The translations under genes and the position numbers were made by a program. A stretch of 64,000 nt of DNA from Caldisericaceae bacterium (GTDB taxonomy: Bacteria > Caldisericota > Caldisericia > Caldisericales > Caldisericaceae): NCBI GenBank assembly GCA_049967855.1, contig JBMFRX010000001.1, forward strand, positions 96,001-160,000, read 5' to 3'. Below the pieces are notes generated by a model. That model saw only the letters and a program-made list of their open reading frames with translations. It was not told the DNA's origin and ran no database searches. Positions 11,736 to 29,512 of this stretch are shown in pieces (within the stretch, counting starts at the first letter, position 1; each line of letters begins with the position of its first letter).

Positions 11736-12029
11736 ATGAAAGATATAATAATTTCGGTTTTAACTATTGGTGGTTTTGGAGCTCTTTTTGGCTTGCTCCT
11801 TGGGATATTCAATGAGAAATTTAAGGTAGAGGAAGATCCTCTCGCTGTAGCGATTTACGAAGTCCTTCCACATGGAGAATGTGGTGCCTGTGGCTTTCCA
11901 GGTTGCTATCCGTGTGCCCAGGCGATTGCCGAAGGTAAGGCTCCTGTTACAGCATGTGTCGTAGGTGGAGATGAGACTGCTCAGAAAATCAAAAGTGTTC
12001 TGGATGAGTTTAAGGCAAAGGAAAGTTAA
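11736..12029 (+). CDS. rnfB: Rnf complex subunit B, short form (TM plus a single FeS domain)
   Basis: TM helix, KFKVEEDP, LP..ECGACGFPGC..CA...C.VGG; ends at 97 aa. Confidence 0.88.
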   Translation: MKDIIISVLTIGGFGALFGLLLGIFNEKFKVEEDPLAVAIYEVLPHGECGACGFPGCYPCAQAIAEGKAPVTACVVGGDETAQKIKSVLDEFKAKES

Positions 12030-15219: not shown

Positions 15220-16047
15220 TCACTTTGAATTCAAAAACTCGTACAACTTCCCAGAGGTTTCAAACGTATCTGAGCTTGCCCTGGCGATTATTATTGAGTT
15301 TTCTTGAGCTTTCTTGATAGTATCATAGGGAACATTATTGTCCTCGGTGACTATGATTATCGGTATTCGTTTTATCACCGCGACTCCTATTATGTTCAGG
15401 TTTGTTTGAACTGTGAGCCAGGCGCTTTCTTCTTTTCCTTTTGCAAGTACGTTGCTTAATAAATCCGATGCATAGGCAGATAGAACTTCTTGTTCAAGGT
15501 AAGCATCTGTATTTTCAGTAAGTACTTTAAGTTTCAATTTTTCAATAATCTCTTTCACTTTCATTTGTATCCTCCGTGGGTCTCTTACAACTTCCTTCCA
15601 TATCTCAAAAAAAACGTATGTTCCCTTCCCTTTAACCGATGAAATTAAGGAGAAGTCTGCAACTTTTTGAATATTCTTAAGTCCCATTCCTGCTCCAAAG
15701 CCTAGTTCGCGTGCCTGTTTTGAAGCAGTCGAATAGCCTGGTGTAAGCGCTAATAGCAGTGATTCAATACCTGGCCCAATGTCAATTGCAACTGTTTTCA
15801 GTTTTTCGCACAGCACCGTCGTCTTTAGAATCCCGAAGTGTGAATGGATAATTATGTTTGACTCCGCTTCATATGCGCATATTCCGAAACAACGTAAGTA
15901 GTCTTTCTTTTCTTTAAAGTCTCTATAGCATTCGTATGTCCTTATTATCTCCTCTATACTCTTTCTTGAGGCGAGTGTTGCATCACCCAGGTGGTCATAA
16001 TCAGAAGCCTTTACTGTGTATTCAATAAATGCTAGTTTGTTTTCCAA
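15220..16047 (-). CDS. RsbT-like anti-sigma Ser/Thr kinase (HATPase) fused to a DRTGG domain
   Basis: YEAESNIIIHS, DIGPGI, GYSTA..ARELGFGAGMGL.NI; C-terminal YASDLLSNVLA..WLTVQTNLNIIGVA. Confidence 0.85.
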   Translation of the reverse strand: MENKLAFIEYTVKASDYDHLGDATLASRKSIEEIIRTYECYRDFKEKKDYLRCFGICAYEAESNIIIHSHFGILKTTVLCEKLKTVAIDIGPGIESLLLALTPGYSTASKQARELGFGAGMGLKNIQKVADFSLISSVKGKGTYVFFEIWKEVVRDPRRIQMKVKEIIEKLKLKVLTENTDAYLEQEVLSAYASDLLSNVLAKGKEESAWLTVQTNLNIIGVAVIKRIPIIIVTEDNNVPYDTIKKAQENSIIIARASSDTFETSGKLYEFLNSK

Positions 16048-16397
16048 GGTGCCCCCTGGAGCCCTGCTTTGTAAAGCAAACCGCAGGTAACAAAGACTAT
16101 ATATTCTGTCCTTAGAATGATTATTCTTTCGCTTCTTGCAAAATCTATTGTTTCCTGTGGGATGAATTTTCCTCTCGCAATAAGAATCGCAGGGATGTCA
16201 AGTATCTTTGCAGTTTTTATTACAGAAGTATTGGTTACGCCTGTTATGAGAAGTACTGGCTCATCTTCTCTGCTGATTATAAAAAGGGTATCGCTTAACA
16301 GATCTGCAGCAAATGCATATTTTATATCGCAATCTATGTCTCCCTGGTCCTGCACAATGCTACCGTTTACAATACTTACTATTTCCTCTATTTTCAT
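16032..16397 (-). CDS. DRTGG domain protein
   Basis: MKIEEIV, AFAADLLSDTL, LLITGVTN, ARGK, CGLLY pattern. Confidence 0.85.
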   Translation of the reverse strand: MKIEEIVSIVNGSIVQDQGDIDCDIKYAFAADLLSDTLFIISREDEPVLLITGVTNTSVIKTAKILDIPAILIARGKFIPQETIDFARSERIIILRTEYIVFVTCGLLYKAGLQGAPWKTN

Positions 16398-16413: not shown

Positions 16414-19326
16414 TTAGAAGTATTTTTTGCTCAAGTAGAATTGCTTCAAGTTTTCGTTTTTAAAATGTGCAACGACTTGTATTTTTAACTTCTGCAACTC
16501 GGACTCATATAAGGCAACATCATTCTCCTTTTTCAAAATTTGAGCGGCTCTTTTTAACATTTCAAGAGCTTCTCTCCTGAGTTCAAGTTGCACTTTGTCA
16601 AGATTAAATTTATTTAAATCGCTGTACATTAAAGAAATTTCATTGATGCTCTTTTTTGCAATAAAGAGTTCCGTTTTTCTAAGCAAAAGTTGTATTTGTT
16701 CAGCCTCAGTTAGTTGAAGTTTTTGCAATTTCAGGAAAATACTTAGAGCTTTGTCATATAAACCCATCCTCACATAGAGTTTTGCAAGCTCAAGAGTGGC
16801 AGTTTTCCATTCTCTTTCGGCACCAAGTCTCTTGAATATTTTTTGGGCGCTTTTAATGTTTGCTTCAGCTCTTTTCAAATCACCCGTCAGCAAGGTTGCC
16901 ATTCCTATGCCAAGAGCACAGTAACCAATGCCTATTTCGTTCTTGATTGCTTTGTCGATTTTGATTGACCCTTCATAATATTTCAGAGCATCGGCATAAT
17001 CTCCAATTGTAAGATATGTGTCTCCTATGTTGTAGTTTGCAATTGATTCACCGTATTCATTATAAAGCCTTTTGTATTCTTCAAGGGTTTCTTTGAACAT
17101 CTCAAGGCTTTCTTCAATACTCCCTGTCTCCTGTAAGGCAATAGCCATATTGTTCTTTATTGATGTTACTTTCTGTGGGTTGTTCTCCAAAGCAATTGTA
17201 AGGCCTGCTTTCAAGAAACGCAAACTCTCATTGTATTTGTGTTCCTCCAGCAGCAATATGCCTTTTATATTGTAATAGTTTGCAAGAGTTGCTTCATCGC
17301 AACCATCAACGTCGATTTCCTTAAATATCTCTTCTGCCTTGTTATGCTTGCCCTGGGCGTATTGAATCCAGCACATTGAAAGTTTTATTTCCACGGAGGC
17401 ATTCTTGCTGCATTTCTTTTTTAGGGCTGTGTCCAAAATCGCCAGAGATTTGCTGTAGTTTCCTGTTTCCTCATACGCATCTGCTAACTCCTTCAAGAGG
17501 TTGCAATCTTGACTGTTTCTTAGATATTTGTAAGATTCTTCATAAAACTCAATTGCCTCATTTCCTCTATCAATTTTTACCAACAGAGAAATTATTTTTC
17601 GTGCAATCTTGCCTGTAGGTGGGCCATCCTGTACGAGCCCATATATTCTTTTGTAAACTTCAACAGCAGTGAAATAAGACATATTTTTTTCCTCAAACTG
17701 AGCATATTTTGTAAGGTAAGAAATACTTTGCTTCAGCTCTCCCGCAAGCAAAAGATGGTTGGCGACATTTAAATATATCTTTTCGTCTCCTAGCTGCTTT
17801 TCAAGCAAAGCTATCTTTTTGTGCATTAAACGTTTCTGAACGCTTGATAACCTTTGAGTGAGATAGTCACGTACTATAGGATAAGTAAAAAAGATGTAAT
17901 CGTTTTCCTCTCTGAGAATGTTTTTTTCTAAAAGTGATTTGTACTGCACACTGTAGTTAAAACCAAGCTCATCAATTATTCTGTACACAGTAACGCTTGG
18001 AATTTTTTCTTCTTCGAGAGCCAACCATTCTAAGAGTTTTCTTTCGTCGGGTTCTACTGAATTTAAGATAAACTGTGCAATTGAGTCTGTGTTTGCTCTC
18101 ATAAAATCAAAAGTTTTTGACAAGGAAAGTCCGTCCTTTGTTCTAATGAGATTTTTATTTTTCACTAAAGTCTTTACTATGTAGTTTATTAAAAGGGGAA
18201 TGCCTCCGCTGTACTTGTAGACGGTCTCAACAAAATCGCTTGATATCTGCCCGGCTACAAGCAAATCCGAAAGCATAATCTTTGTTTCTTCGAGGTTTAG
18301 TGGCCGCAGCTCTACATTAAATAGATTGACGTTATTCTTAAATAGATGTCCGAATTTCTCCTGTGAGGAGCCCTTGTATATTCCAATTAGGAGAATTTTT
18401 TTATTTTTTATTTTTTCTAGAAATTTAGGTAAGAATTCCAATGAAACTGCATCAATGTAATTGATGTTCTGCAAGGAAATCAGTATAGGTTTCTTTGATG
18501 ACTCTTCAATCAACAATTCTGTAACTATGTTGAAAATAATATCCTCGAATTTTCCTAATTGTTTGAATTTGCTGAAACTATGGATTTTCTGATCAAATTG
18601 AGTTTGCATTTTCTCATTCATAAGATGTTTGAAGAATCCCATTGCTTCTTGCTCATCCTTTACGGTTAAAACGCTTTCTATCACCTCAAAACTCAAAAAT
18701 TTTGCTTGTTCAACAATTGTATTGGCAAAAAATTTCTTTCCAATCCCTTCTGAGCCAGATATAACAAGGAGGCTCCCTTTTGAGTTAAGGGAATCTTTCA
18801 ATTTTGAAAAAGCGAGTTTCTTTTCAATAGACCGACCTGCAAGCCTTGATTTTCCTTTTCTCTCTTCCAAAACTGTTACATTCCCTTGCATTTTGCCTTC
18901 ATACATTTTTTTATCAGCCTTATCTATCAATTTTGCAAAGGACGTGCCATCTTTTGGGAAAATTGCTATACCATAGCTAAAGTCTATTTTGAATGATGCA
19001 AACTCAGTTGAATTTGTCTTTGACAGAAAACGGTTAACTATTTTTGTTGCATTTGTAAGAGAAGTTCTAGGTAAAATGATGATAAACTCGTCTCCGCCAA
19101 ACCTTCCGACAATATCCTCGCTTCTAAAGGATTTATTTAAAAATGAGCCAAACTGGGCAAGCACGATATCCCCAGTACTGTGCCCATGAACGTCATTTAT
19201 GAGTTTGAAGTTATTTAGGTCGATAAAAACAAGGGCAAAAGGAGTCCTATGAGATATTAGTTTATCTACATATCCCTCAATCGCTTCTCGGGTTCTTACG
19301 TTGGTTAAAAAGTCATTTTCTCCCAT
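16414..19326 (-). CDS. diguanylate cyclase (GGDEF) - STAND/AAA-like ATPase - TPR protein
   Basis: IDLNNFKLINDVHGHSTGD, RSED I-site, RFGGDEF, ADKKMY; LAGR..E, GSEGIGK, LRPL, SGGIPL STAND motifs; C-terminal TPR repeats. Confidence 0.88.
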   Translation of the reverse strand: MGENDFLTNVRTREAIEGYVDKLISHRTPFALVFIDLNNFKLINDVHGHSTGDIVLAQFGSFLNKSFRSEDIVGRFGGDEFIIILPRTSLTNATKIVNRFLSKTNSTEFASFKIDFSYGIAIFPKDGTSFAKLIDKADKKMYEGKMQGNVTVLEERKGKSRLAGRSIEKKLAFSKLKDSLNSKGSLLVISGSEGIGKKFFANTIVEQAKFLSFEVIESVLTVKDEQEAMGFFKHLMNEKMQTQFDQKIHSFSKFKQLGKFEDIIFNIVTELLIEESSKKPILISLQNINYIDAVSLEFLPKFLEKIKNKKILLIGIYKGSSQEKFGHLFKNNVNLFNVELRPLNLEETKIMLSDLLVAGQISSDFVETVYKYSGGIPLLINYIVKTLVKNKNLIRTKDGLSLSKTFDFMRANTDSIAQFILNSVEPDERKLLEWLALEEEKIPSVTVYRIIDELGFNYSVQYKSLLEKNILREENDYIFFTYPIVRDYLTQRLSSVQKRLMHKKIALLEKQLGDEKIYLNVANHLLLAGELKQSISYLTKYAQFEEKNMSYFTAVEVYKRIYGLVQDGPPTGKIARKIISLLVKIDRGNEAIEFYEESYKYLRNSQDCNLLKELADAYEETGNYSKSLAILDTALKKKCSKNASVEIKLSMCWIQYAQGKHNKAEEIFKEIDVDGCDEATLANYYNIKGILLLEEHKYNESLRFLKAGLTIALENNPQKVTSIKNNMAIALQETGSIEESLEMFKETLEEYKRLYNEYGESIANYNIGDTYLTIGDYADALKYYEGSIKIDKAIKNEIGIGYCALGIGMATLLTGDLKRAEANIKSAQKIFKRLGAEREWKTATLELAKLYVRMGLYDKALSIFLKLQKLQLTEAEQIQLLLRKTELFIAKKSINEISLMYSDLNKFNLDKVQLELRREALEMLKRAAQILKKENDVALYESELQKLKIQVVAHFKNENLKQFYLSKKYF

Positions 19327-19511: not shown

Positions 19512-19976
19512 ATGGAAGAAACTAAATTTCCTCAAGTGGATTTGGAAGTCAGAAAATGGGGCGCTAAACCAGAATCGCTGATTCAGGTGTTGCACGGGAC
19601 ACAAGAAAGGATTGGCTACTTGCCAAAAGAGTCTTTAAATTACATAGCTATGAAGTTGAACGTCCCTCTATCGAAAGTCTTTGGTGTTGTTACGTTTTAT
19701 AACTTCTTCAAGACCGAGAAAGACGCCGACCATGTTATTATGACTTGTATGGGCACTGCTTGCTATGTTAAAGGTGGGGAAGAAGTAATCAAAGCTCTTG
19801 AAAATTATCTCGGAATAAAAACAGGTGAGATAACTGCTGATAGAAAATTCTCGTTGCGGATTGTCCGATGTCTTGGAGCATGTGGGCTTGCACCTGTTAT
19901 TTCGGTTGACGGAAAAGACATTTATGGGAAGCTAACTCCCGAAAAGGCAATCGAAGCTGTTAAGAGATACCAATAA
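19512..19976 (+). CDS. NuoE/HydC/HndA-like [2Fe-2S] subunit, copy 1
   Basis: LIQVLH, GVVTFYNFF, CMGTAC, RCLGACGLAPV; RBS AAGGAG before ATG 19512 (ORF track start 19485). Confidence 0.93.
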   Translation: MEETKFPQVDLEVRKWGAKPESLIQVLHGTQERIGYLPKESLNYIAMKLNVPLSKVFGVVTFYNFFKTEKDADHVIMTCMGTACYVKGGEEVIKALENYLGIKTGEITADRKFSLRIVRCLGACGLAPVISVDGKDIYGKLTPEKAIEAVKRYQ

Positions 19977-19992
19977 ACAGGATTTTGCTTCT

Positions 19993-20538
19993 GTGAAAGA
20001 GCTTTCTTTGAATGTTCTTGACATAATTGAAAATTCCATTAATGCGAAAGCAAAGAACATTCACATTGTTGTTAATGAAGATGATTCCGTTGACTTGCTT
20101 GAGATTATCATCAAAGATGATGGCGTTGGAATGGACGATGAATTTTTGAAGACTGTTTGTGACCCGTTCACTACCAGTTCGACAAACAAGAAAGTAGGGC
20201 TTGGATTGCCGCTTTTAAAGCAGGAGGCAGAGCTTACAAGCGGAGGCTTGAGAATAAAGAGTAAGAAAGGTATAGGAACAGAAGTGCAGGTCTCTTTCAA
20301 AAAATCTTGTGTTGATACACCACCATTAGGAGACCTTGTCTCTACTATAATCTGCGTATTTGCAACTCATCCTGAGGTAAATTTGTACTATAAACATACC
20401 GTAAATGGGAAGACTTTTGAGATTTCGACAGATCTAATCAGGAAAGAGTGTGGGGACAATTATTGTAACCCTGTCATATTAAAAGGTATTAAGGAATTTT
20501 TTCAAAATAGCATAGAATCATTATATGGAGGTGAATGA
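19993..20538 (+). CDS. stand-alone HATPase_c (histidine-kinase-like ATPase) of hydrogenase operons
   Basis: ELSLNVLDIIENS, DDGVGM, DPFTT, VGLGLPL, PPLGD; no HisKA domain. Confidence 0.88.
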   Translation: MKELSLNVLDIIENSINAKAKNIHIVVNEDDSVDLLEIIIKDDGVGMDDEFLKTVCDPFTTSSTNKKVGLGLPLLKQEAELTSGGLRIKSKKGIGTEVQVSFKKSCVDTPPLGDLVSTIICVFATHPEVNLYYKHTVNGKTFEISTDLIRKECGDNYCNPVILKGIKEFFQNSIESLYGGE

Positions 20539-20915
20539 TGGATAAGATAAAGTCCATTGAAGAATTAAGAAGGCTTCGCGAGCACGCCAAAGAGTCTCTA
20601 AAAACTCGTTCGGGAGAAGCAAAGGTAAAGATAATGATTAGCATGGGAACAGTTGGTATTGCAGCTGGAGCAAGGGATGTACTGATGACAATCCTTGAAG
20701 AGCTTGAGAAAAGAGGCTTTACAGATGCACAGATTATTGAAAGAGGCTCTTTGGGACTTGACCAAGAGGAGCCAGTTGTAGCTATAGAGATGGGAGGCGA
20801 CCTGGTTTACTATGGCAAGGTTACCCCAGAGATGGCACGAACGATCATAGCCTCTCATGTTGTTAATGGGCAGATTGTTAGTGATTGGGTAATAGCGAAA
20901 GGAAACAAAAAATGA
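20535..20915 (+). CDS. thioredoxin-like ferredoxin (HndB/HydD-like), without cysteines
   Basis: KIKSIEEL, MGTVGIAAGAR, GSLGL..EEPVV, YGKVTPE, HVVNG. Confidence 0.85.
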   Translation: MMDKIKSIEELRRLREHAKESLKTRSGEAKVKIMISMGTVGIAAGARDVLMTILEELEKRGFTDAQIIERGSLGLDQEEPVVAIEMGGDLVYYGKVTPEMARTIIASHVVNGQIVSDWVIAKGNKK

Positions 20916-22546
20916 AAATCTTTAGAATTCATGCACTAATTTGTGCTGGTGCCCAGTGCATTGCAGCTGGTGGCAATGGCTTTGAAGATGCTTTGAAACT
21001 TGAGCTCAAAAATCATAATATTGAAGAGGAAATAAGTGTTATTGAAACAGGTTGTATGGGAGCCTGCCAGCTTGGTCCACTCCTTGTGGTTTATCCTGAA
21101 GGCATTATGTATACCAAAGTGAAGCCTGAAGATGCAAAGGAAATTGTGGAGGAACACTTTCTGAAGGGCAGGCCCGTGAAGAGACTTATGTGGAAGTCTG
21201 AAAAAAAAGAACTGCCAAACATATCTGAAATTCCATTTTTTGCTAAGCAGACTAAAATTGTTTTGAGGAACTGCGGTGTTATAAATCCTGAAGACATCAA
21301 TGAATATATCGCAAATGATGGTTATGAAGCGTTATCAAAAGCAATAACAGAAATGGAACCACAGGATGTGATAAAGGTCGTCAAAGATTCCGGCCTTCGC
21401 GGAAGGGGAGGTGCAGGATTTCCAACTGGCTTGAAATGGGAATTTGCGGCAAAGCAGAATTCCGAAGAGAAATACATCATATGCAACGCAGATGAGGGAG
21501 ACCCTGGTGCCTATATGGATAGGTCAGTCCTTGAAGGTGACCCGCATTCTGTACTTGAGGGTATGGAAATTGCAGGTTATGCTATAGGTGCTACAAAAGG
21601 TTTTATCTATGTTAGAGCCGAATACCCCTTAGCAGTTGAAAGGCTGCAGATTGCCATAAAACAGGCTCATGAAGCTGGACTTCTTGGTAAGAATATTCTG
21701 GGGACCAATTTTTCTTTTGACATAGAACTAAGGATGGGAGCAGGTGCTTTTGTATGCGGTGAGGAGACAGCATTAATCAATTCAATAGAGGGTAAACGCG
21801 GTGAGCCTCGAAAGAAACCTCCTTTCCCTGCGGTAAGTGGGCTATTTGGAAAACCTACTGTCATAAATAATGTTGAAACTCTTGCTAACTTGCCTGTTAT
21901 CATTGACAAGGGCGCGCAATTCTTAAGGCAGTTTGGTACTGAGAAGAGCCCTGGGACCAAGGTTTTTGCTCTTGCAGGGAAAGTGAACATTACTGGACTG
22001 GTCGAAGTTCCTCTGGGGACTCCTCTAAGACAGATTGTTTTTGACATCGGCGGAGGCATGCCAGAAGGTCATACTTTTAAAGGGGCTCTCACGGGTGGGC
22101 CTTCAGGTGGAGTTATACCCAAAGAGTATCTCGATGTACCTATGGATTACGAAAACCTACCAGCTCTCGGAACTATTATGGGTTCTGGAGGGCTTATAAT
22201 AATTGATGAAACAAGTTGTATGGTTGATGTGGCAAAGTTCTTCCTGAAGTTTACTGTTGATGAATCTTGTGGCAAGTGTACCCCATGCAGAGAAGGAACG
22301 AGGCAGATGCTTGCTATACTTGAGAGAATTTCGACAGGCAAAGGAAAGGCAGGCGATATTGAGAAGCTTGAAAAGATGGGTGAAATTATAAAGCTCACCT
22401 CTCTATGCGGTCTTGGGCAGACTGCCCCTAATCCAGTGCTAACTACTATAAGATACTTCAGGGATGAGTACACTGCGCACATCGAAAAGAAAGAGTGTCC
22501 TGCTCATGTTTGCAATATGCCAAAAAAAGCTGAAGTTAAAGTATGA
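20912..22546 (+). CDS. NuoF/HydB/HndC-like flavoprotein, copy 1
   Basis: N-terminal Trx-like 2Fe-2S cysteines; GLRGRGGAGFPTG, NADEGDPGAYMDR, GAGAFVCGEETAL, GGPSGG, ESCGKCTPCREG; ATGA overlap with the upstream gene. Confidence 0.95.
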   Translation: MKIFRIHALICAGAQCIAAGGNGFEDALKLELKNHNIEEEISVIETGCMGACQLGPLLVVYPEGIMYTKVKPEDAKEIVEEHFLKGRPVKRLMWKSEKKELPNISEIPFFAKQTKIVLRNCGVINPEDINEYIANDGYEALSKAITEMEPQDVIKVVKDSGLRGRGGAGFPTGLKWEFAAKQNSEEKYIICNADEGDPGAYMDRSVLEGDPHSVLEGMEIAGYAIGATKGFIYVRAEYPLAVERLQIAIKQAHEAGLLGKNILGTNFSFDIELRMGAGAFVCGEETALINSIEGKRGEPRKKPPFPAVSGLFGKPTVINNVETLANLPVIIDKGAQFLRQFGTEKSPGTKVFALAGKVNITGLVEVPLGTPLRQIVFDIGGGMPEGHTFKGALTGGPSGGVIPKEYLDVPMDYENLPALGTIMGSGGLIIIDETSCMVDVAKFFLKFTVDESCGKCTPCREGTRQMLAILERISTGKGKAGDIEKLEKMGEIIKLTSLCGLGQTAPNPVLTTIRYFRDEYTAHIEKKECPAHVCNMPKKAEVKV

Positions 22547-22570
22547 CGACAACATTTTAAAGGAGGCGAG

Positions 22571-22999
22571 ATGAAAGAACATTCGCTTATTGATAGCTTG
22601 CACGAGCTTCAAGATGCTGACAGGGAGAACTTCATTAAAGGTAAAGATGCCATTTCTGTTGCAAGAAAAAGCAAACTGCCTTTGTCAAAAGTCTACGGGG
22701 TAGCGACGTTCTATACAATGTTTTCCGTATACCCGAGGGGTAAGCATATTATAAGGGTTTGTAATAGTCTTTCTTGTCATATGGCTAAAGCAGAAGACAT
22801 TGTTGAAAAGCTGAAAGAAGTCCTTGGTGTAGAGATGGGAGAAACTACACCTGATAAAGAATTCACGCTTGAAGAGTCAAGCTGCCTCGGGATGTGTTCT
22901 GTTTCTCCTGCTATGATGATTGATGATATGCCTTTTGGAAATCTTTCGACCGATGACATCCCCTTGATACTTGAGAAAGTTAGGGAGGGTAAATTATGA
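22571..22999 (+). CDS. NuoE/HydC-like [2Fe-2S] subunit, copy 2
   Basis: YGVATFY, VCNSLSC, SSCLGMCSVSPAM; RBS AAGGAGG. Confidence 0.93.
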   Translation: MKEHSLIDSLHELQDADRENFIKGKDAISVARKSKLPLSKVYGVATFYTMFSVYPRGKHIIRVCNSLSCHMAKAEDIVEKLKEVLGVEMGETTPDKEFTLEESSCLGMCSVSPAMMIDDMPFGNLSTDDIPLILEKVREGKL

Positions 23000-24639
23000 A
23001 GATTGTCAGGACACATGTTCTTGTTGCAGAGGACACTAAAAGTATTCTTAAAGGAGCCAAGGAGATAGAAGAACAGCTTAACAGAGCTATAAGAGACGCA
23101 GGTCTTGAAAATGAGATACTGGTCACTCCAACAGGAAGCCTCGGTTATGAAGATGTTGGAGTAGCAGTAGCGGTTTACCCTGAGGGAATAATCTATGTGC
23201 CTGTTACCAAGGGCAACATCAAAGAAATCGTGACAGAGCATTTTTTGAAGGGACGCGTTGTTGAAAGACTTGCAAAGAAGATAGAATCGACTTCTGTAAA
23301 GCTTGGAGTTACTAAGTCAGAACAGATAATCTCAACACAGGTAAGAGTTGTCTTGAGAAATGTAGGTATGATAAATCCAGAAAGCATTGATGAATATATT
23401 GCAAGAGATGGGTATACAGCACTTGAAAAAGCTATCTCAAAAGGTCCACAGTGGACTCTCGATGAGGTCAAGAATTCAGAACTTAGAGGTCGAGGTGGTG
23501 CTGGTTTCCCAACGGGGAAAAAATGGGAATTCACTGCTAAAGCAAATAGCACGACTAAATTCTTGATTTGCAATGCAGATGAAGGGGAACCAGGGACTTT
23601 TAAGGATAGGGAAATAATGGAAGGGGATCCGCATTCTCTGATTGAGGGGATGATTATTGCAGCATTTGCAACAGGCTGTACTTACGGATACATCTACATT
23701 AGAGGTGAATATGACCTTTCTATCAAGCGTCTCGAAAAAGCCATTATCGATGCAAAAGCGCTCGGTTTACTGGGAGAAGATATCCTTGGAAGCGGGCTCT
23801 CCTTTGATATTGAAATCAAGAAAGGAGCAGGTGCGTATATTTGTGGTGAAGAAACAGCTCTAATCGAATCAATCGAAGGTCATCGTGGAGAACCACGCAA
23901 AAAGCCTCCATATCCTCCAACTTTCGGATTATGGGGAAAGCCAACTGTCATTAACAATGTGGAAACGCTTGCAAATATACCTCCAATCATTGCTAATGGA
24001 GCAGAGTGGTTTAAAACAATTGGTGTTCCTGGAACCTATGGAACGAAACTCTTTAGTCTTATGGGTGATGTGAATTGGAAAGGTGTTATAGAGATTCCTT
24101 TTGGCACGCCGCTTTCTTACATAGTGAATGATTTAGGAGGAGGCGTCAAGGACGGCAAGGCTCTGAAGGGCATAATACTTGGAGGAGTTTCAGGGAGTCT
24201 TATAACTCCATCTAAACTTGATACTCCAGTTGACTTCAATTCTCTTGCACTTATTGAAGCAGGTCCTGGTTCGGGTGCAATAATTGTAATGGACGAAAGA
24301 CGTTGCATTGTTGATATTATGAAGAACATTGCGTATTTTTTCAGGCATGAAAGTTGCGGAAAGTGCACTCCGTGTAGAGTTGGTACTGAGGAACTGTATG
24401 CAATGATAGATGGCATATCAAAAGGTCGCGGCGACTTGAAAGATCTTGACAAAATCAAGAGCTTAGGTCAAGATATGAATCTAACATCTTTTTGTCCTTT
24501 GGGGCAGACTGCGCCTAACATAATTCTTCAGTCAATAAGAGAATTTAAGCAAGAGTGGCTTGAGCATATTAAAGACAAGAAATGCAGAGCAAATGTATGT
24601 AAATTTGAACCGATTGAAGAGGAGGTCTTAGATGAGTGA
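22996..24639 (+). CDS. NuoF-like flavoprotein, copy 2
   Basis: LRGRGGAGFPTG, NADEGEPGTFKDR, GAGAYICGEETAL, HESCGKCTPCRVG. Confidence 0.95.
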   Translation: MKIVRTHVLVAEDTKSILKGAKEIEEQLNRAIRDAGLENEILVTPTGSLGYEDVGVAVAVYPEGIIYVPVTKGNIKEIVTEHFLKGRVVERLAKKIESTSVKLGVTKSEQIISTQVRVVLRNVGMINPESIDEYIARDGYTALEKAISKGPQWTLDEVKNSELRGRGGAGFPTGKKWEFTAKANSTTKFLICNADEGEPGTFKDREIMEGDPHSLIEGMIIAAFATGCTYGYIYIRGEYDLSIKRLEKAIIDAKALGLLGEDILGSGLSFDIEIKKGAGAYICGEETALIESIEGHRGEPRKKPPYPPTFGLWGKPTVINNVETLANIPPIIANGAEWFKTIGVPGTYGTKLFSLMGDVNWKGVIEIPFGTPLSYIVNDLGGGVKDGKALKGIILGGVSGSLITPSKLDTPVDFNSLALIEAGPGSGAIIVMDERRCIVDIMKNIAYFFRHESCGKCTPCRVGTEELYAMIDGISKGRGDLKDLDKIKSLGQDMNLTSFCPLGQTAPNIILQSIREFKQEWLEHIKDKKCRANVCKFEPIEEEVLDE

Positions 24640-27349
24640 ATTAGTTAACGTCAAAATTGATGGCAAAAGTTACCAGTTTGAAAGAGGGACTACAATTTTA
24701 AAGGCATGCAAATCTGTAGGCTACGATATACCTACGCTTTGCTATCTTGAAGGGATATCAGAAGAAGGTTCCTGTGGAGTGTGTGTTGTTGAAGTTAAAG
24801 GTGCAAAAACTCTACAGCGTTCCTGTATAACTGAAGTCACTGAAGGGATGGAAATAAGTACGAATACTCCAATAGTTCGTGAAGCAAGGAAGATGAATCT
24901 TGAACTTGCACTTGCACACCATCCACTTGACTGTATGACCTGTGATGCAGATGGAGATTGTGAACTGCAAGAACTTGCATATGAATTCAACATTAAGAAA
25001 AGCCAATTTCTTGACGAGCGTGAGGCTTTTGAGTCTCCTAAAGAAACCGCTTGGGACACAAATCCGTTTATTCAATTCGACCCTCAGAAATGTATCTTGT
25101 GCAGGCGTTGTGTTGAAGCTTGTGAGAATCAGTCGATAGTCGAAGCAATTGGAATTGCTATGAGGGGATATAAATCAACTGTTTCAACTCCTTTCAATCT
25201 TCCGCTCGAAGAAACAGATTGCCAATTCTGTGGGGCTTGCATTCAAGCTTGTCCAGTAGGGGCTCTGGTTGAAAAACCGCGCGTCGGGAAGGGCAAAATC
25301 TTTAACCTCGAAAAAACCGAGACAATTTGTTCTTACTGCGGAACTGGTTGCGAACTTACTCTTTACAGAGATAAGAACAACAAGCTGATTATGGCAAGAG
25401 GAAATGAGGATTCTGTTGTTAATAAGGGCAGGCTTTGCGTCAAGGGACGTTTTGGATTTGAGTACGTCAATTCCCCGGACAGGTTAACTACTCCTTTGAT
25501 TAAAGAGAACGGCAAATTTAGGGAAGCAAGTTGGGATGAGGCTCTCGAATACACATCGCGGAGGTTGTCTGAAATAAGGGAGAAATATGGGCCAGATTCA
25601 ATTGGAGTGCTCGGCTCATCAAGGTGCACAAACGAGGACAACTATGTGGTGCAGAAATTCGCAAGAGCTGTTATTGGTACAAATAACGTTGATAACTGTG
25701 CAAGGTTATGCCATTCTTCCACTATTGCTGGTCTTGGAAAGGCACTTGGTGCTGCAGCTGCAACAAACCCAATTGAGGATATTGCAAATATCGATGTAAT
25801 GTTTGTGATTGGTTCTAATATGACTGAGACTCACCCAGTGATTTCGCAATTTATCAAAGAGAATCAGAAGAAACGTGGAGCGAAGCTCATCGTCTGTGAT
25901 CCAAGGAAAACCTATCTTTCGACTGTTTCTGATGTGTACATTCAGCATAACCCTGGGACGGATGTGGCACTGCTGAACGGTATTATGAAAGTCATTGTAG
26001 ACAAGGGGTTGCTTAATAGAGAATTTATTGAGTCTCATACTGAAGGATATGATGAATTTGTCAAAGTAGTGTCAAATTACGACCTTGATACTGTCGCCAA
26101 AATAACAGGGGTGGACAAGTCTCTGATTGAGAAGGCTGCAATTATGTATGCTGAAGCAAAGAATGCGACCATTTTCTATACTATGGGCATTACACAGCAC
26201 TCCGTAGGCACTGATAATGTACTGAGTGTCGCAAACTTGGCGCTCTTAACAGGACATATTGGTCGCGAGGGTAATGGGATTAACCCATTAAGAGGCCAGG
26301 CAAATGTGCAAGGAGCTTGTGACATGGGAGCACTTCCTGATGTGTACACTGCTTACCAAAAAGTTACCGATGCGGCTTCCAGGGAGAAATTTGAAAAAGC
26401 ATGGAATGTAAAATTGCCTGACAAGGTCGGATACGCTGTCAGTGAGTTTGGTGACCTTGCCTTTGATGGAAAATTGAAAGCAGTCTATGCTATGGGCGAG
26501 AATCCTCTTATGACAGAAGCAGACATAAAGCATGTTAGAGAAGGTTTTGAGAAGCTGGAGTTTCTTGCTATTCAGGAAATTTTCCTCTCCGAAACAGCTG
26601 AGCTTGCAGATGTAATTTTCCCTGCGGCTGCTGCCTACGAGAAAGAAGGGACTTTTACAAATACCGAGCGAAGAGTACAGCTTCTGAGGCCTGCTTTAGA
26701 GAAGCCATCCAATGCAAAGTTTGATTGGGAAATTGTTTCTCTTCTTGCAGCAAAGATGGGTTATCAAATGAACTACAAAAAAGCCTCTGATATTATGGAC
26801 GAAATAGCTTTGCTTTCACCATCTTATGCTGGCATTCACCACTATAGACTCGAAAAAGGCGGAATTCAGTGGCCTTGTCCCAACGATGAACATCCTGGAA
26901 CAAAGATATTGCACTATGGCGGTGTATTTAAGAGACCAAACGGAAAAGCTCTAATGAACCCTGTTGAATACAAAGAGGCAAAAGAGCTCCCTGATAAAGA
27001 ATATCCGCTTGTTCTTACTACTGGAAGGATTCTCTACCACTATCATTCTGGGAATGAATCGAGAAGAGTTGAAGTGCTTGAAGCTTTTGTACCAAAGAAT
27101 TATGTTGAGATAAGTCCTTTAGACGCTAACAACCTTGGAATTAAGGATAGGGACGTTGTAAGAGTGTCAACCAGACGCGGAAGCATAGAGGTTGAAGCTC
27201 GTATCTCTGAAAAGCCCAAGAAGGGGATTGTATTTGTCAGTTTCCATTTTAGCGAAGCAAATGCTAATGTTTTGACTAACGCAGCACTTGACCCTATTGC
27301 AAAGATACCAGAATTTAAAGTAGCAGCTTGTAAAATTGAGAAAATTTAA
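24632..27349 (+). CDS. fdhF: Mo/W-bisPGD formate dehydrogenase alpha subunit with NuoG-like FeS N-terminus (Cys-type)
   Basis: 2Fe-2S motif, HxxxCxxC, two 4Fe-4S motifs, CSYCGTGC, LCVKGRFG, NCARLCH, PLRGQANVQGA, LDPIAKIPEFK. Confidence 0.95.
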   Translation: MSELVNVKIDGKSYQFERGTTILKACKSVGYDIPTLCYLEGISEEGSCGVCVVEVKGAKTLQRSCITEVTEGMEISTNTPIVREARKMNLELALAHHPLDCMTCDADGDCELQELAYEFNIKKSQFLDEREAFESPKETAWDTNPFIQFDPQKCILCRRCVEACENQSIVEAIGIAMRGYKSTVSTPFNLPLEETDCQFCGACIQACPVGALVEKPRVGKGKIFNLEKTETICSYCGTGCELTLYRDKNNKLIMARGNEDSVVNKGRLCVKGRFGFEYVNSPDRLTTPLIKENGKFREASWDEALEYTSRRLSEIREKYGPDSIGVLGSSRCTNEDNYVVQKFARAVIGTNNVDNCARLCHSSTIAGLGKALGAAAATNPIEDIANIDVMFVIGSNMTETHPVISQFIKENQKKRGAKLIVCDPRKTYLSTVSDVYIQHNPGTDVALLNGIMKVIVDKGLLNREFIESHTEGYDEFVKVVSNYDLDTVAKITGVDKSLIEKAAIMYAEAKNATIFYTMGITQHSVGTDNVLSVANLALLTGHIGREGNGINPLRGQANVQGACDMGALPDVYTAYQKVTDAASREKFEKAWNVKLPDKVGYAVSEFGDLAFDGKLKAVYAMGENPLMTEADIKHVREGFEKLEFLAIQEIFLSETAELADVIFPAAAAYEKEGTFTNTERRVQLLRPALEKPSNAKFDWEIVSLLAAKMGYQMNYKKASDIMDEIALLSPSYAGIHHYRLEKGGIQWPCPNDEHPGTKILHYGGVFKRPNGKALMNPVEYKEAKELPDKEYPLVLTTGRILYHYHSGNESRRVEVLEAFVPKNYVEISPLDANNLGIKDRDVVRVSTRRGSIEVEARISEKPKKGIVFVSFHFSEANANVLTNAALDPIAKIPEFKVAACKIEKI

Positions 27350-27365
27350 TACAAAGGAGGCAAAA

Positions 27366-28220
27366 ATGAATGAGATGAATCTCTTTCCACCAGCTCAAAT
27401 AGCTGAGAAACTGAGAGATGTATGTGTTGGAAAATGCAAGATTCCTATGAAGAAGTTTTTTGTCCTGGCAATTCTTGCAGGTGCGTTTATTGCTTTTGGA
27501 GGTGAATTGTCAATTCTGGTTGGCTCTGACGCCTCACTCGGGTTTGGTTTTACCAAGTTCCTTGCAGCAAGCGTATTTACTGTTGGTCTCATTTTAGTTG
27601 TTGTTGCTGGGGCAGAGCTTTTTACGGGGGATAACCTCATAGTAATCTCAGCTCTGGATAAGAAAATCCGATGGAGCGAATTGCTTAAGGCCTGGGTTGC
27701 CGTATACATCGGCAACTTCATTGGCTCTCTGCTTATTGCTGCGTTTCTCTTCTGGGGAGGAACATGGTCATTGAATTCAAACGCAGTAGGAGCGGCGGCA
27801 CTGAAGATAGCAAGTGCAAAAGTGAGTATTCCTTTCTGGCAGGCATTCTTCAGAGGAATACTCTGTAATTGGTTAGTGTGCCTTGCTGTATGGATGGCAA
27901 CATCCTCAAAAGATGTTATAGGAAAGATATTTGCAATCTATTTTCCTATTATGGCTTTTGTTGCTTCAGGTTTTGAGCACTCTGTTGCAAATATGTTTTT
28001 CATTCCTTACGGAATTTTCTTGAAAAGTGTACCCAAAGTTGTCGAAGCAACAGGCAAAACTCTTGCAGACTTTGCTAATCTGAATTGGGGAACACTTTTT
28101 ACAATGAACCTGATACCTGTTACGCTTGGTAATATAATAGGCGGAGCGTTCTTTGTGGGGGCTATATACTGGTATGTGTATCTGAGGAAGGAGCCAGAAA
28201 CTTTTGAACCCAAAAAATAA
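27366..28220 (+). CDS. fdhC: formate/nitrite transporter (FocA/FdhC family)
   Basis: AILAGAFI, GAELFTGD, GILCNWLVCLA, FVASGFEHSVANM, VTLGNIIGG; RBS AAGGAGG. Confidence 0.93.
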   Translation: MNEMNLFPPAQIAEKLRDVCVGKCKIPMKKFFVLAILAGAFIAFGGELSILVGSDASLGFGFTKFLAASVFTVGLILVVVAGAELFTGDNLIVISALDKKIRWSELLKAWVAVYIGNFIGSLLIAAFLFWGGTWSLNSNAVGAAALKIASAKVSIPFWQAFFRGILCNWLVCLAVWMATSSKDVIGKIFAIYFPIMAFVASGFEHSVANMFFIPYGIFLKSVPKVVEATGKTLADFANLNWGTLFTMNLIPVTLGNIIGGAFFVGAIYWYVYLRKEPETFEPKK

Positions 28221-28851
28221 TTCCTACAAAGATAAGTTGCGTTCAAAGAAAGTAAAACCTGTTATCCTTGTTGGTGGCAAGAGCAGGCGCTTTGGGCGCG
28301 ACAAGTTTTATCTTGAATTTAATGGGAGATTAGTCATAGAAAGGACGTATTCTTTGCTTAAGCGGGTCTTCAACGAAGAGCCTCTGTTTGTAGGAAGAGA
28401 GGCTCTTCCACCTCCTTTTATTTCTATCCCCGATGTTACGATAGGACTGGGTCCGATAGGAGGGCTTTATACTGCGTTAGACTGTGTTGATGCAGATTTT
28501 GTCTTCTTGACTGCCTGCGATATGCCTCTTATAAATGAAGATGTCTTGCGATATATGTTCAACAACCTGAATTCAAATTGCCAGGTTTATCTCCCGCGAT
28601 TTAGAAACGGTATGATTGAGCCACTTTTTGCATTCTATAGTGTTGGGCTTAAGTACAAGGTTAAGCGTAGCATTGAAGCAAGAGACTTTAGAATGCGGTC
28701 ATTGCTTGAAGGAAGCCTGGTGGAATATCTCGATGAAAGCGAGATTAAATCTATTGACGAAGAGCTACTGAGTTTCCTAAATATTAACACCAAAAACGAC
28801 CTTGATAAGATTATCGGTAAATTGCATTGTGAAAGAAATAGAGATTATTAG
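28204..28851 (+). CDS. mobA: molybdenum cofactor guanylyltransferase
   Basis: ILVGGKSRRFGRDK, GPIGG, ACDMP, EPLFAFY, FLNINT. Confidence 0.92.
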   Translation: MNPKNNSYKDKLRSKKVKPVILVGGKSRRFGRDKFYLEFNGRLVIERTYSLLKRVFNEEPLFVGREALPPPFISIPDVTIGLGPIGGLYTALDCVDADFVFLTACDMPLINEDVLRYMFNNLNSNCQVYLPRFRNGMIEPLFAFYSVGLKYKVKRSIEARDFRMRSLLEGSLVEYLDESEIKSIDEELLSFLNINTKNDLDKIIGKLHCERNRDY

Positions 28852-29512
28852 GTTTGAGAATGGTATTTTTCAAAAACGTAAAGACTCAGTGGTGAGAGAA
28901 AGGATTCTAAATATTTTTGTGGGTGGAGAATTCTTGAACTCTATCATCTATTCGTCGGGATTCTCCAAGGAGCTTCTTTTTGGATACTTATACCTTGAAG
29001 GGCTTATCAATTCGGTTCACGATGTAACCGAATACAGAGAAACAGAAAGTGAATATTCCGTTAATTACTTCGTTGAAGTTAGAAAGTCGGAGATTGCCTC
29101 AATAAGCAAAGAAAGGATTACAGTGAACAGGAACACCCTGTTTAGCTTAATGGAAGAACTCCTGTCGAAAGGAGAAATATTCTCAAAAACTGGTGGCACG
29201 CATATCGCAGGATTAGCTGAAGATAACAAATTAAGTGTTTATTTCGAAGATATATCCCGACGAAGTGCAATACAGAAGTGCGTTGGTTTTTCAATCCTAA
29301 ACAAGCTAAGGCCTGACTTTCTTTTTCTAAGCGGAAGGGTTGGTTTTAATACGGTGCTTTATGCTAAACGTGCAGGTATAAATTTCATAGTCTCGCAATC
29401 ATCTGCCTCCGATCTTGCTATCAGGACAGCCACAAGTGAGGGTATAACGCTAATTGGTTTCCTGCGCGGAAAACGTTTCAATATTTATTCTCACGCTGAA
29501 TACGTTGAATAA
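28829..29512 (+). CDS. fdhD: FDH accessory sulfurtransferase FdhD-like, degenerate (start uncertain; ORF from 28802)
   Basis: ELLFGYLYLEG, FSKTGGTH, SGRV, DLAI..A..GITLIGFLRGKRFNIYS. Confidence 0.85.
   Translation: MKEIEIIRFENGIFQKRKDSVVRERILNIFVGGEFLNSIIYSSGFSKELLFGYLYLEGLINSVHDVTEYRETESEYSVNYFVEVRKSEIASISKERITVNRNTLFSLMEELLSKGEIFSKTGGTHIAGLAEDNKLSVYFEDISRRSAIQKCVGFSILNKLRPDFLFLSGRVGFNTVLYAKRAGINFIVSQSSASDLAIRTATSEGITLIGFLRGKRFNIYSHAEYVE

Follow-up and report, generated by a model that had tools for sequence, protein, structure and literature searches.

In the Type 1 Fdh-Bfu predicted for Carboxydothermus (PMC9304861), the pterin domain of a formate dehydrogenase (FDH) is fused to a NuoG-type subunit, alongside a BfuC and a BfuB that has the bifurcating signature, the B1 and B5 clusters and the B2 site. 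The HydABC(D) and NiFe-HydABCSL hydrogenases (A. mobile, 7T2R; A. woodii, 7Q4V; T. maritima, 7P5H) share a hydC-hisK-hydD-hydB gene front and have one flavin head, with a B3/B4 domain, per catalytic subunit. In Gottschalkia acidurici, HylABC-FdhF2 (Type 3 Fdh-Bfu) uses formate, NAD and ferredoxin through separate HylA and FdhF2 proteins, a full-length HylB and one head. The non-bifurcating NADH enzymes HydAB and FdhB-2/4 of S. aciditrophicus, Hyd1ABC of S. wolfei and Hydrogenedentota sub-type II (PMC7311640, PMC8805022, PMC11406978) have T/K and Y at the signature positions, no GGPSG and none of the B5, B3 and B4 clusters, and each has its own catalytic subunit. Here we describe an operon from a 64,000-nucleotide (nt) stretch of a Caldisericaceae bacterium genome (the window; GCA_049967855.1, contig JBMFRX010000001.1, positions 96,001 to 160,000), in which a bifurcating-type head without B3/B4 and a second, non-bifurcating E/F pair both precede a single fused FDH gene. 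The individual parts are known, and what appears new is the arrangement of two heads with one catalytic subunit. We read them, with a confidence about evenly balanced between right and wrong, as interchangeable heads of that subunit, one NAD-only and the other using NAD plus soluble ferredoxin, as judged from sequence.

The operon comprises ten plus-strand genes (19512-29512) in the order nuoE1-HATPase-D-nuoF1-nuoE2-nuoF2-fdhF-fdhC-mobA-fdhD, with families assigned by Pfam and NCBIfam:

19512..19976, plus strand: NuoE1 (E1), HydC/HoxE-like [2Fe-2S] subunit (C1 cluster) of the bifurcating-type head (PF01257; start set from the N-termini of relatives)
19993..20538, plus strand: stand-alone HATPase_c protein (HK), a hisK/hydE-type accessory gene (PF02518)
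20535..20915, plus strand: D, HydD/BfuD-like thioredoxin-fold protein without cysteine (alignment to HydD homologues)
20912..22546, plus strand: NuoF1 (F1), 544 amino acids (aa) from an ATG at 20912, BfuB/HydB-type flavoprotein (profile matches, alignment)
22571..22999, plus strand: NuoE2 (E2), [2Fe-2S] subunit of the non-bifurcating head (PF01257; fused to F2 in relatives G001, G007, G016 and G017)
22996..24639, plus strand: NuoF2 (F2), 547 aa, HydB-like flavoprotein with a non-bifurcating signature (profile matches, alignment, tree)
24632..27349, plus strand: FdhF, 905 aa, NuoG/HydA-type Fe-S N-domain plus Cys-type Mo/W-pterin formate dehydrogenase domain (TIGR01591)
27366..28220, plus strand: FdhC, formate/nitrite transporter (PF01226; TIGR00790 above cut-off)
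28204..28851, plus strand: MobA-like pterin guanylyltransferase, start uncertain (PF12804; NF001457 below cut-off)
28802..29512, plus strand: FdhD sulfurtransferase-like maturase, start uncertain (PF02634)

An earlier interpretation made from the letters alone (the sequence-only reading) had given this gene order and described it as tightly coupled, and both points were borne out by the open reading frames (ORFs), the family matches and the junctions, with overlaps of 4, 4, 4 and 8 nt at HK/D, D/F1, E2/F2 and F2/FdhF, and gaps of 16, 24 and 16 nt at E1/HK, F1/E2 and FdhF/FdhC, respectively. Its naming of the third gene as a ferredoxin did not hold. As D has neither a cysteine nor a Pfam match, a Cys-ligated Fe-S protein is excluded; it is HydD-like, and unlike the canonical HydD homologues of HydABC(D), with their three Cys, it has other residues at these positions. 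With dN/dS values of 0.017-0.031 among relatives, the cluster-less D is likely to be a structural partner. The A. mobile holoenzyme does not contain the homologous hisK product (PMC9304861, Fig. 1 legend).

F1 carries the motifs NADEGDPGAYM, GAFVCGEET and GGPSG, by which it had been recognised as resembling a bifurcating HydB; the motifs were confirmed, and the lack of a C-terminal B3/B4 domain had been overlooked. The protein stops directly behind its H-x-C-x4-C tail, without the 2x[4Fe-4S] domain, and no split-off gene for a stand-alone 2x[4Fe-4S] protein was found beside the operon among the ORFs with CxxCxxCxxxC. All other ligands are in place: C11, C16, C48 and C52 for B5, C453, C456, C459 and C499 for B1, and C436, H523, C529 and C534 for the B2/Zn site, together with an FMN/NAD site (FMN, flavin mononucleotide). 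Its best PDB match was HydB of A. mobile (7T2R, 778 bits), and in the alignment to 7T2R_B a Ser stands at the position of A. mobile C476. The bifurcating beta signature of PMC7311640 (A/E232 with M234, F367 and GGPSG) is present. Compared with the Bfu components of PMC9304861, E1 corresponds to a BfuC with the C1 [2Fe-2S] cluster (PF01257, four Cys), F1 to a BfuB in its FMN/NAD site and its B1, B5 and B2 (His plus Cys) ligands, and the FdhF N-domain to a BfuA with A1/A2 clusters, whereas the B3 and B4 domain is absent from both F1 and F2.

Purifying selection on F1 is strong, and the gene is not decaying (dN/dS of 0.021 and 0.025 in two unsaturated relative pairs, compared with 0.032-0.072 for F2 and 0.033-0.063 for FdhF). 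Short F1 forms of this kind made up 69 of the 120 best homologues, and 67 of these 69 keep all three bifurcation motifs. One of 537 aa with all the motifs, 76% identical to F1, is encoded by Thermodesulfobium narugense (P0164).

For F2, the sequence-only reading had proposed a non-bifurcating, complex I-like protein. The signature was confirmed (NADEGEPGTFK, GAYICGEET and GGVSG), and the protein agrees with the non-bifurcating NADH beta subunits of PMC7311640 in having T/S232 with K/S/A234, Y367, no GGPSG and fewer clusters. The build, by contrast, is HydB-like and not that of a plain complex I subunit: F2 has a HydB-type thioredoxin-fold N-domain without Cys, retains B1 and the B2/Zn tail, and lacks B3/B4 and B5. 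Its best PDB match was A. mobile HydB with 587 bits, against about 395 for Nqo1, a gap due in part to the extra N-domain. In a quick, unrooted tree built without characterised reference sequences, F2 fell in the non-bifurcating group (SH-aLRT 99; 45 rows, one group), and short F1 appeared in two places, as a 17-row clade and as a pair among the GltD-fused forms; such a tree does not tell whether F1 lost a B3/B4 or a GltD domain. In the same tree, the F2 of L107 was sister to that of L054.

Both heads look NAD-type by their motifs, as each carries NADEG and CGEET; the acidic residue of CGEET is the NADH determinant in E. coli NuoF. The linkage of the NADEG loop to NAD, and of GDEG to NADP, is itself a hypothesis (PMC9431212). 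A coupling of formate, NADH and NADPH through heads that differ in their pyridine nucleotide, which had been suggested for this operon, is unsupported by these motifs, and we consider it very improbable. In three relatives (L044, L045 and L065) F1 has a DPD_II-FAD (GltD/NfnB-like) domain instead of B3/B4, so that an NADP-linked version exists there, but this domain is absent from F1 here. In addition, the source genome (G000; 99.99% complete, 42 contigs) has on contig C3 a separate gene pair that we take, by inspection, to be NfnAB-like.

FdhF scored 867 bits against a TIGR01591 cut-off of 666, has the cluster motifs A1-A4 in its N-domain, including the His-ligated A4 (H-x3-C-x2-C-x5-C), and contains an RLCH at 358-361 that is presumably the active site. 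By its domains it is a Type 1 BfuA-like subunit. It was the only NuoG-type gene found in G000, and one such gene per genome was present in all five two-head genomes tested (G000, G002, G004, G008, which is a single contig, and G026). The absence of a hydrogenase from the operon had been part of the sequence-only reading, and an orphan hydA had been set beforehand as the observation that would speak against it. No [FeFe] large subunit (PF02906) was matched in G000, nor in G002, G008, G015, G020, G022 or G024, and no [NiFe] large subunit (PF00374) in G000, nor above the cut-off in G002, G008, G015 or G020. The H-cluster subunit HydA that marks the Hnd/HydABC [FeFe] hydrogenases was not found in G000. 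In G004, G026 and G030, the two-head block would serve an operon with a NuoG-like gene and NiFe large subunit located elsewhere in the genome.

When F1 (105-537) and the FdhF N-domain were modelled as a complex, the score was 0.80, compared with 0.00 for the best of three controls, with runs agreeing in at least 97% of contacts and a partner pLDDT of at least 88; the mark applied was reached by 116 of 157 solved pairs and by 2 of 215 mismatched pairs. As similar complexes have already been solved, the model shows likeness and not binding. The modelled interface is the B1 region, where conservation in F1 is 0.86, compared with 0.82 for the whole core. F1 and F2 share 17 of 28 interface residues, so that both heads would use the same FdhF site, F1 being the one modelled.

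These results fit best the second of the two options in the sequence-only reading, that of swappable diaphorase heads: the five genomes have a single NuoG-type gene each, relatives show either head on its own beside a close FdhF, and the surface that binds NuoG is preserved in both. The two flavin heads would probably compete for the single docking site of FdhF. With E2F2 bound, FdhF would be a complete NAD-linked, non-bifurcating enzyme moving electrons between formate and NAD(H) only. E1F1 would bind the same surface through its B1 region and is predicted to split or merge electrons between NAD(H) and soluble ferredoxin, its low-potential electron passing from the C1/B5 [2Fe-2S] clusters directly to ferredoxin, as reported for HoxEF in a preprint (bioRxiv 10.64898/2026.06.25.734504). 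Bifurcation has been sited at B1-FMN-C1 (PMC12018979). Since no hydrogenase or pyruvate formate-lyase (PFL) was found in G000, CO2/formate, moved by FdhC, may serve as the electron valve of the cell. NADH-only CO2 reduction requires formate near 20 uM (PMC8805022), and the NAD-only head could perhaps act at very low formate and the NADH plus ferredoxin head once formate accumulates. G000 has formyltetrahydrofolate synthetase (FTHFS) and a moaA above cut-off for pterin biosynthesis. By inspection, we also take ORFs of this genome to encode a ferredoxin at C2:126242-126436, Por- and Kor-like operons and an Mbx-like operon.

The precedent for a head of this kind is cyanobacterial HoxEFUYH, which according to the same preprint bifurcates with soluble ferredoxin, although HoxF lacks the B3/B4 domain and keeps the motifs. 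Set against the preprint's description, and not against the HoxF sequence, F1 has the same architecture: an N-terminal [2Fe-2S] cluster and the signature motifs without a ferredoxin-like domain. HoxEFUYH differs in its NiFe head, its plant-type ferredoxin and its single diaphorase, and F1 keeps a B2/Zn tail. Orthology to HoxE/HoxF with a HoxUYH partner was not found, as E1 lies below the HoxE cut-off (its best NCBIfam model, with 175 bits against 224), F1 is nearest to the HydB type and no NiFe gene was found in G000. Ferredoxin reactivity has been tied to HoxE (PMC11647496).

Several points weigh against interchangeable heads with a bifurcating F1. Bfu enzymes are defined by FMN plus six clusters (PMC9304861), a set that F1 does not reach; in NfnABC it is the B3/B4 domain at which ferredoxin was seen bound (PMC12018979), and PMC11406978 equates the loss of B3/B4 with that of bifurcation. 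For HoxEF there is a single preprint as precedent, on an enzyme with a plant-type ferredoxin. An electropositive surface is invoked there, and by a crude count the net charge of the F1 N-domain showed no gain in short forms (median of -3, compared with -2 in full-length forms). The docking model resembles solved HydAB pairs, and its score may be owed to these. Finally, all 24 complete short F1 genes seen stand directly before E2-F2, which may point to an F1 that relies on E2F2 and does not replace it; sampling favoured such loci, they belong to two clades, and L086 (pattern miss), L054 (C-terminus masked) and five contig-edge rows were left out of the count. L054 had entered the first tree count as a short F1 and was rejected when its C-terminus proved to be masked. 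Net charge as a sign of direct ferredoxin docking was also dropped, and no weight was given to the basic C-terminal tails of F1, as in several relatives these run into the start of nuoE2.

An F1 that shares FdhF but no longer bifurcates, and that is a second, differently regulated NADH head with its signature kept for flavin and NAD binding, would account for the missing B3/B4 domain, held necessary in PMC11406978 and PMC12018979, and for the lack of a charge gain. We regard this as unlikely, though to be reckoned with: the short F1 proteins keep the three motifs and B5, unlike the other B3/B4-less heads in the set, which have non-bifurcating residues (64 rows), and HoxF offers a precedent.

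A NuoF match was found in 33 of 41 related genomes. In 20 relative loci chosen for tandem or strong NuoF hits, E1-HK-D-F1-E2-F2 was present in 15, and one more had F1-E2-F2 at a contig end; the E-F-E-F layout therefore recurs and is not due to chance. The block was followed by fdhF in 10 cases, by hydA in two (L040 and L048), by unrelated genes in two and by a contig end in two. The C-terminus of F1 varies among relatives, with B3/B4, GltD or nothing. Cultured Caldisericum exile encodes named homologues of both heads (P0026 and P0156). By its named homologues, the window belongs to Caldisericia.

Close FdhF proteins were also seen with either head by itself. In G001 (same genus), G007, G016 and G017, a fused E2F2 without its N-domain and tail lies near an FdhF at a locus without E1-HK-D-F1; the FdhF domains of these genomes are 73-84% identical, no D was found in the four, and G007 and G017 retain an E1 remnant of 75-100 aa. 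As fused E2F2 and FdhF are kept there, E2F2 suffices genetically. The fusion recalls HydB of S. aciditrophicus, also an E-F fusion. Conversely, in L049 an FdhF 78% identical is paired with a canonical E-D-F(B3/B4) head alone.

The loss of E1-HK-D-F1 as a unit would also fit an E1-D-F1 that does not work with FdhF and instead supplies Rnf or an Mbx-type complex as an NADH/ferredoxin module, or senses redox state together with the HATPase. Type 4 cores without BfuA have been proposed (PMC9304861), and an rnfB 7.5 kb upstream encodes an RnfB of just 97 aa without ferredoxin domains. However, the NuoG interface is kept in F1 and supported by the docking model, short F1 also occurs in genomes with an RnfB frame of 273-293 aa (G028, G036 and G040), and short RnfB occurs in G001, G016 and G017, which lack F1; we consider this explanation quite improbable. 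Across genomes, short RnfB and short F1 showed no correlation. The rnfB gene itself (11736-12029, plus strand) encodes a membrane helix and one PF04060 cluster domain, and the best rnfB frames were 96-132 aa in the listed genomes of family f1 and about 273-299 aa in families f2, f3 and f5.

A single complex with both flavins is possible. In its obligate form, the two halves of an FdhF dimer would bear different heads, E1F1 and E2F2, with the flavins wired through the His-ligated A4, possibly bridged by D, and E2F2 feeding or draining the truncated head. In T. maritima HydABC, the A4-A4 distance between protomers is 8.8-9.0 A (PMC9499530), and the A4 motif is kept in FdhF; the invariable position of short F1 before E2-F2, the disappearance of D and the F2 N-domain along with E1F1 in the four genomes above, and the two-head, two-HydA clusters of Syntrophales and others would all suit such a particle. 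Against it, a homodimeric FdhF has no evident means of enforcing asymmetry, the protomers of StnABC are unconnected (PMC10482914), in G012, which has no F1, a D-like gene is kept along with the F2 N-domain, and F1 retains B3/B4 beside E2F2 in the G041 phylum described below, so that E2F2 is not simply a B3/B4 replacement. We judge an obligate mixed particle rather unlikely.

A set of 78 loci was found with the F2 N-domain. In four besides L040 and L048 (L052, L053, L070 and L126; one from an Elusimicrobia bin), a short F1 and E2F2 come together with a single HydA; in another, a NuoG-like gene accompanies a GltD-fused F1; and most others are ordinary single-head operons. In several loci of Syntrophales, Armatimonadota and Halanaerobiales, a separate HydA goes with each of the two heads. 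Loci from the phylum of G041 were chosen for paired or tandem hits and labelled NiFe by motif; in 18 of 20, the two heads are accompanied by a single HoxU-like gene and a NiFe large subunit, and among these 18, F1 keeps B3/B4 in 17 and has GltD in one. A single NuoG-type gene was found in two of five genomes tested from this phylum, and more in the other three. The design of two heads with one catalytic subunit is thus found again in other Caldisericia, in the Elusimicrobia bin and in another phylum, and the two-head block is portable across three catalytic chemistries: FDH, [FeFe] and [NiFe].

A broader proposal, which we put forward tentatively and think doubtful, is that of two heads for one socket: a widespread anaerobe switch, in which one catalytic subunit (FDH, [FeFe] or [NiFe]) would change between NAD-only and NAD plus ferredoxin by diaphorase exchange, the Caldisericia bifurcating head would work without B3/B4, and mixed dimers would wire both flavins through an A4 bus-bar. 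Should the heads be interchangeable, a single enzyme could take the NADH-only route, which is thermodynamically limited, or turn to confurcation boosted by ferredoxin; to our knowledge, such a choice is normally thought to require separate enzymes. F1 would be a natural B3/B4 deletion, and F1 and F2 a natural bifurcating/non-bifurcating pair on one catalytic subunit, making the minimal needs of Bfu-type bifurcation directly testable; for biocatalysis, an FDH that reduces CO2 and whose electron inputs can be exchanged would be of interest. Neither the layout of two heads with one catalytic subunit nor a B3/B4-less bifurcating-type head on an FDH was described in the literature searched, which was mostly non-subscription and did not cover the supplementary cluster figures of PMC11406978 and PMC9304861, which may show such clusters. 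In PMC11406978, sub-type I (GltD-fused) and sub-type II (without B3-B5) are separate clusters.

Other arrangements were seen among the relatives. In L076, L077, L090 and L095, a Syntrophales-type HK-D(no Cys)-E-F2-HydA-E-F1(GltD)-HydA cluster gives each head its own HydA, and such two-HydA clusters are a possible precursor of the form with one catalytic subunit. Both hydA and fdhF follow E2-F2 in L161 (779-8191, plus strand) and in L133/L134, where one head or head pair may serve two catalytic subunits. Separate E-F(B3/B4)-NuoG/GltD operons of the Stn/Nfn-Bfu type are present in G007, G014 and G040 (L141:7463-11769, L142:7509-11818 and L145:7424-13305). In L039 (6558-10760, minus strand; G020), nuoF2 and fdhF form one 1400-aa frame, probably a sequence error, because the two genes are separate in L149.

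Upstream of the operon, no convincing or conserved Rex-type box was found. The neighbouring genes include:

15220..16397, minus strand: two DRTGG-type genes, one fused to an anti-sigma/kinase-like domain (weak PF07085 matches)

A DRTGG-type pair lies near the two-head block in most of the 20 fetched relative loci. Between this pair and the operon sits a GGDEF-TPR gene (16414-19326, minus strand), which is at the same place in L032 and missing from L031 and L033, where a small, unassigned ORF seemingly lies upstream of nuoE1. Elsewhere in G000 (C12:25134-26987, minus strand), a 618-aa Fe-S/GltD-like fusion at the end of the Mbx-like membrane oxidoreductase operon suggests a direct NADPH input to that complex.

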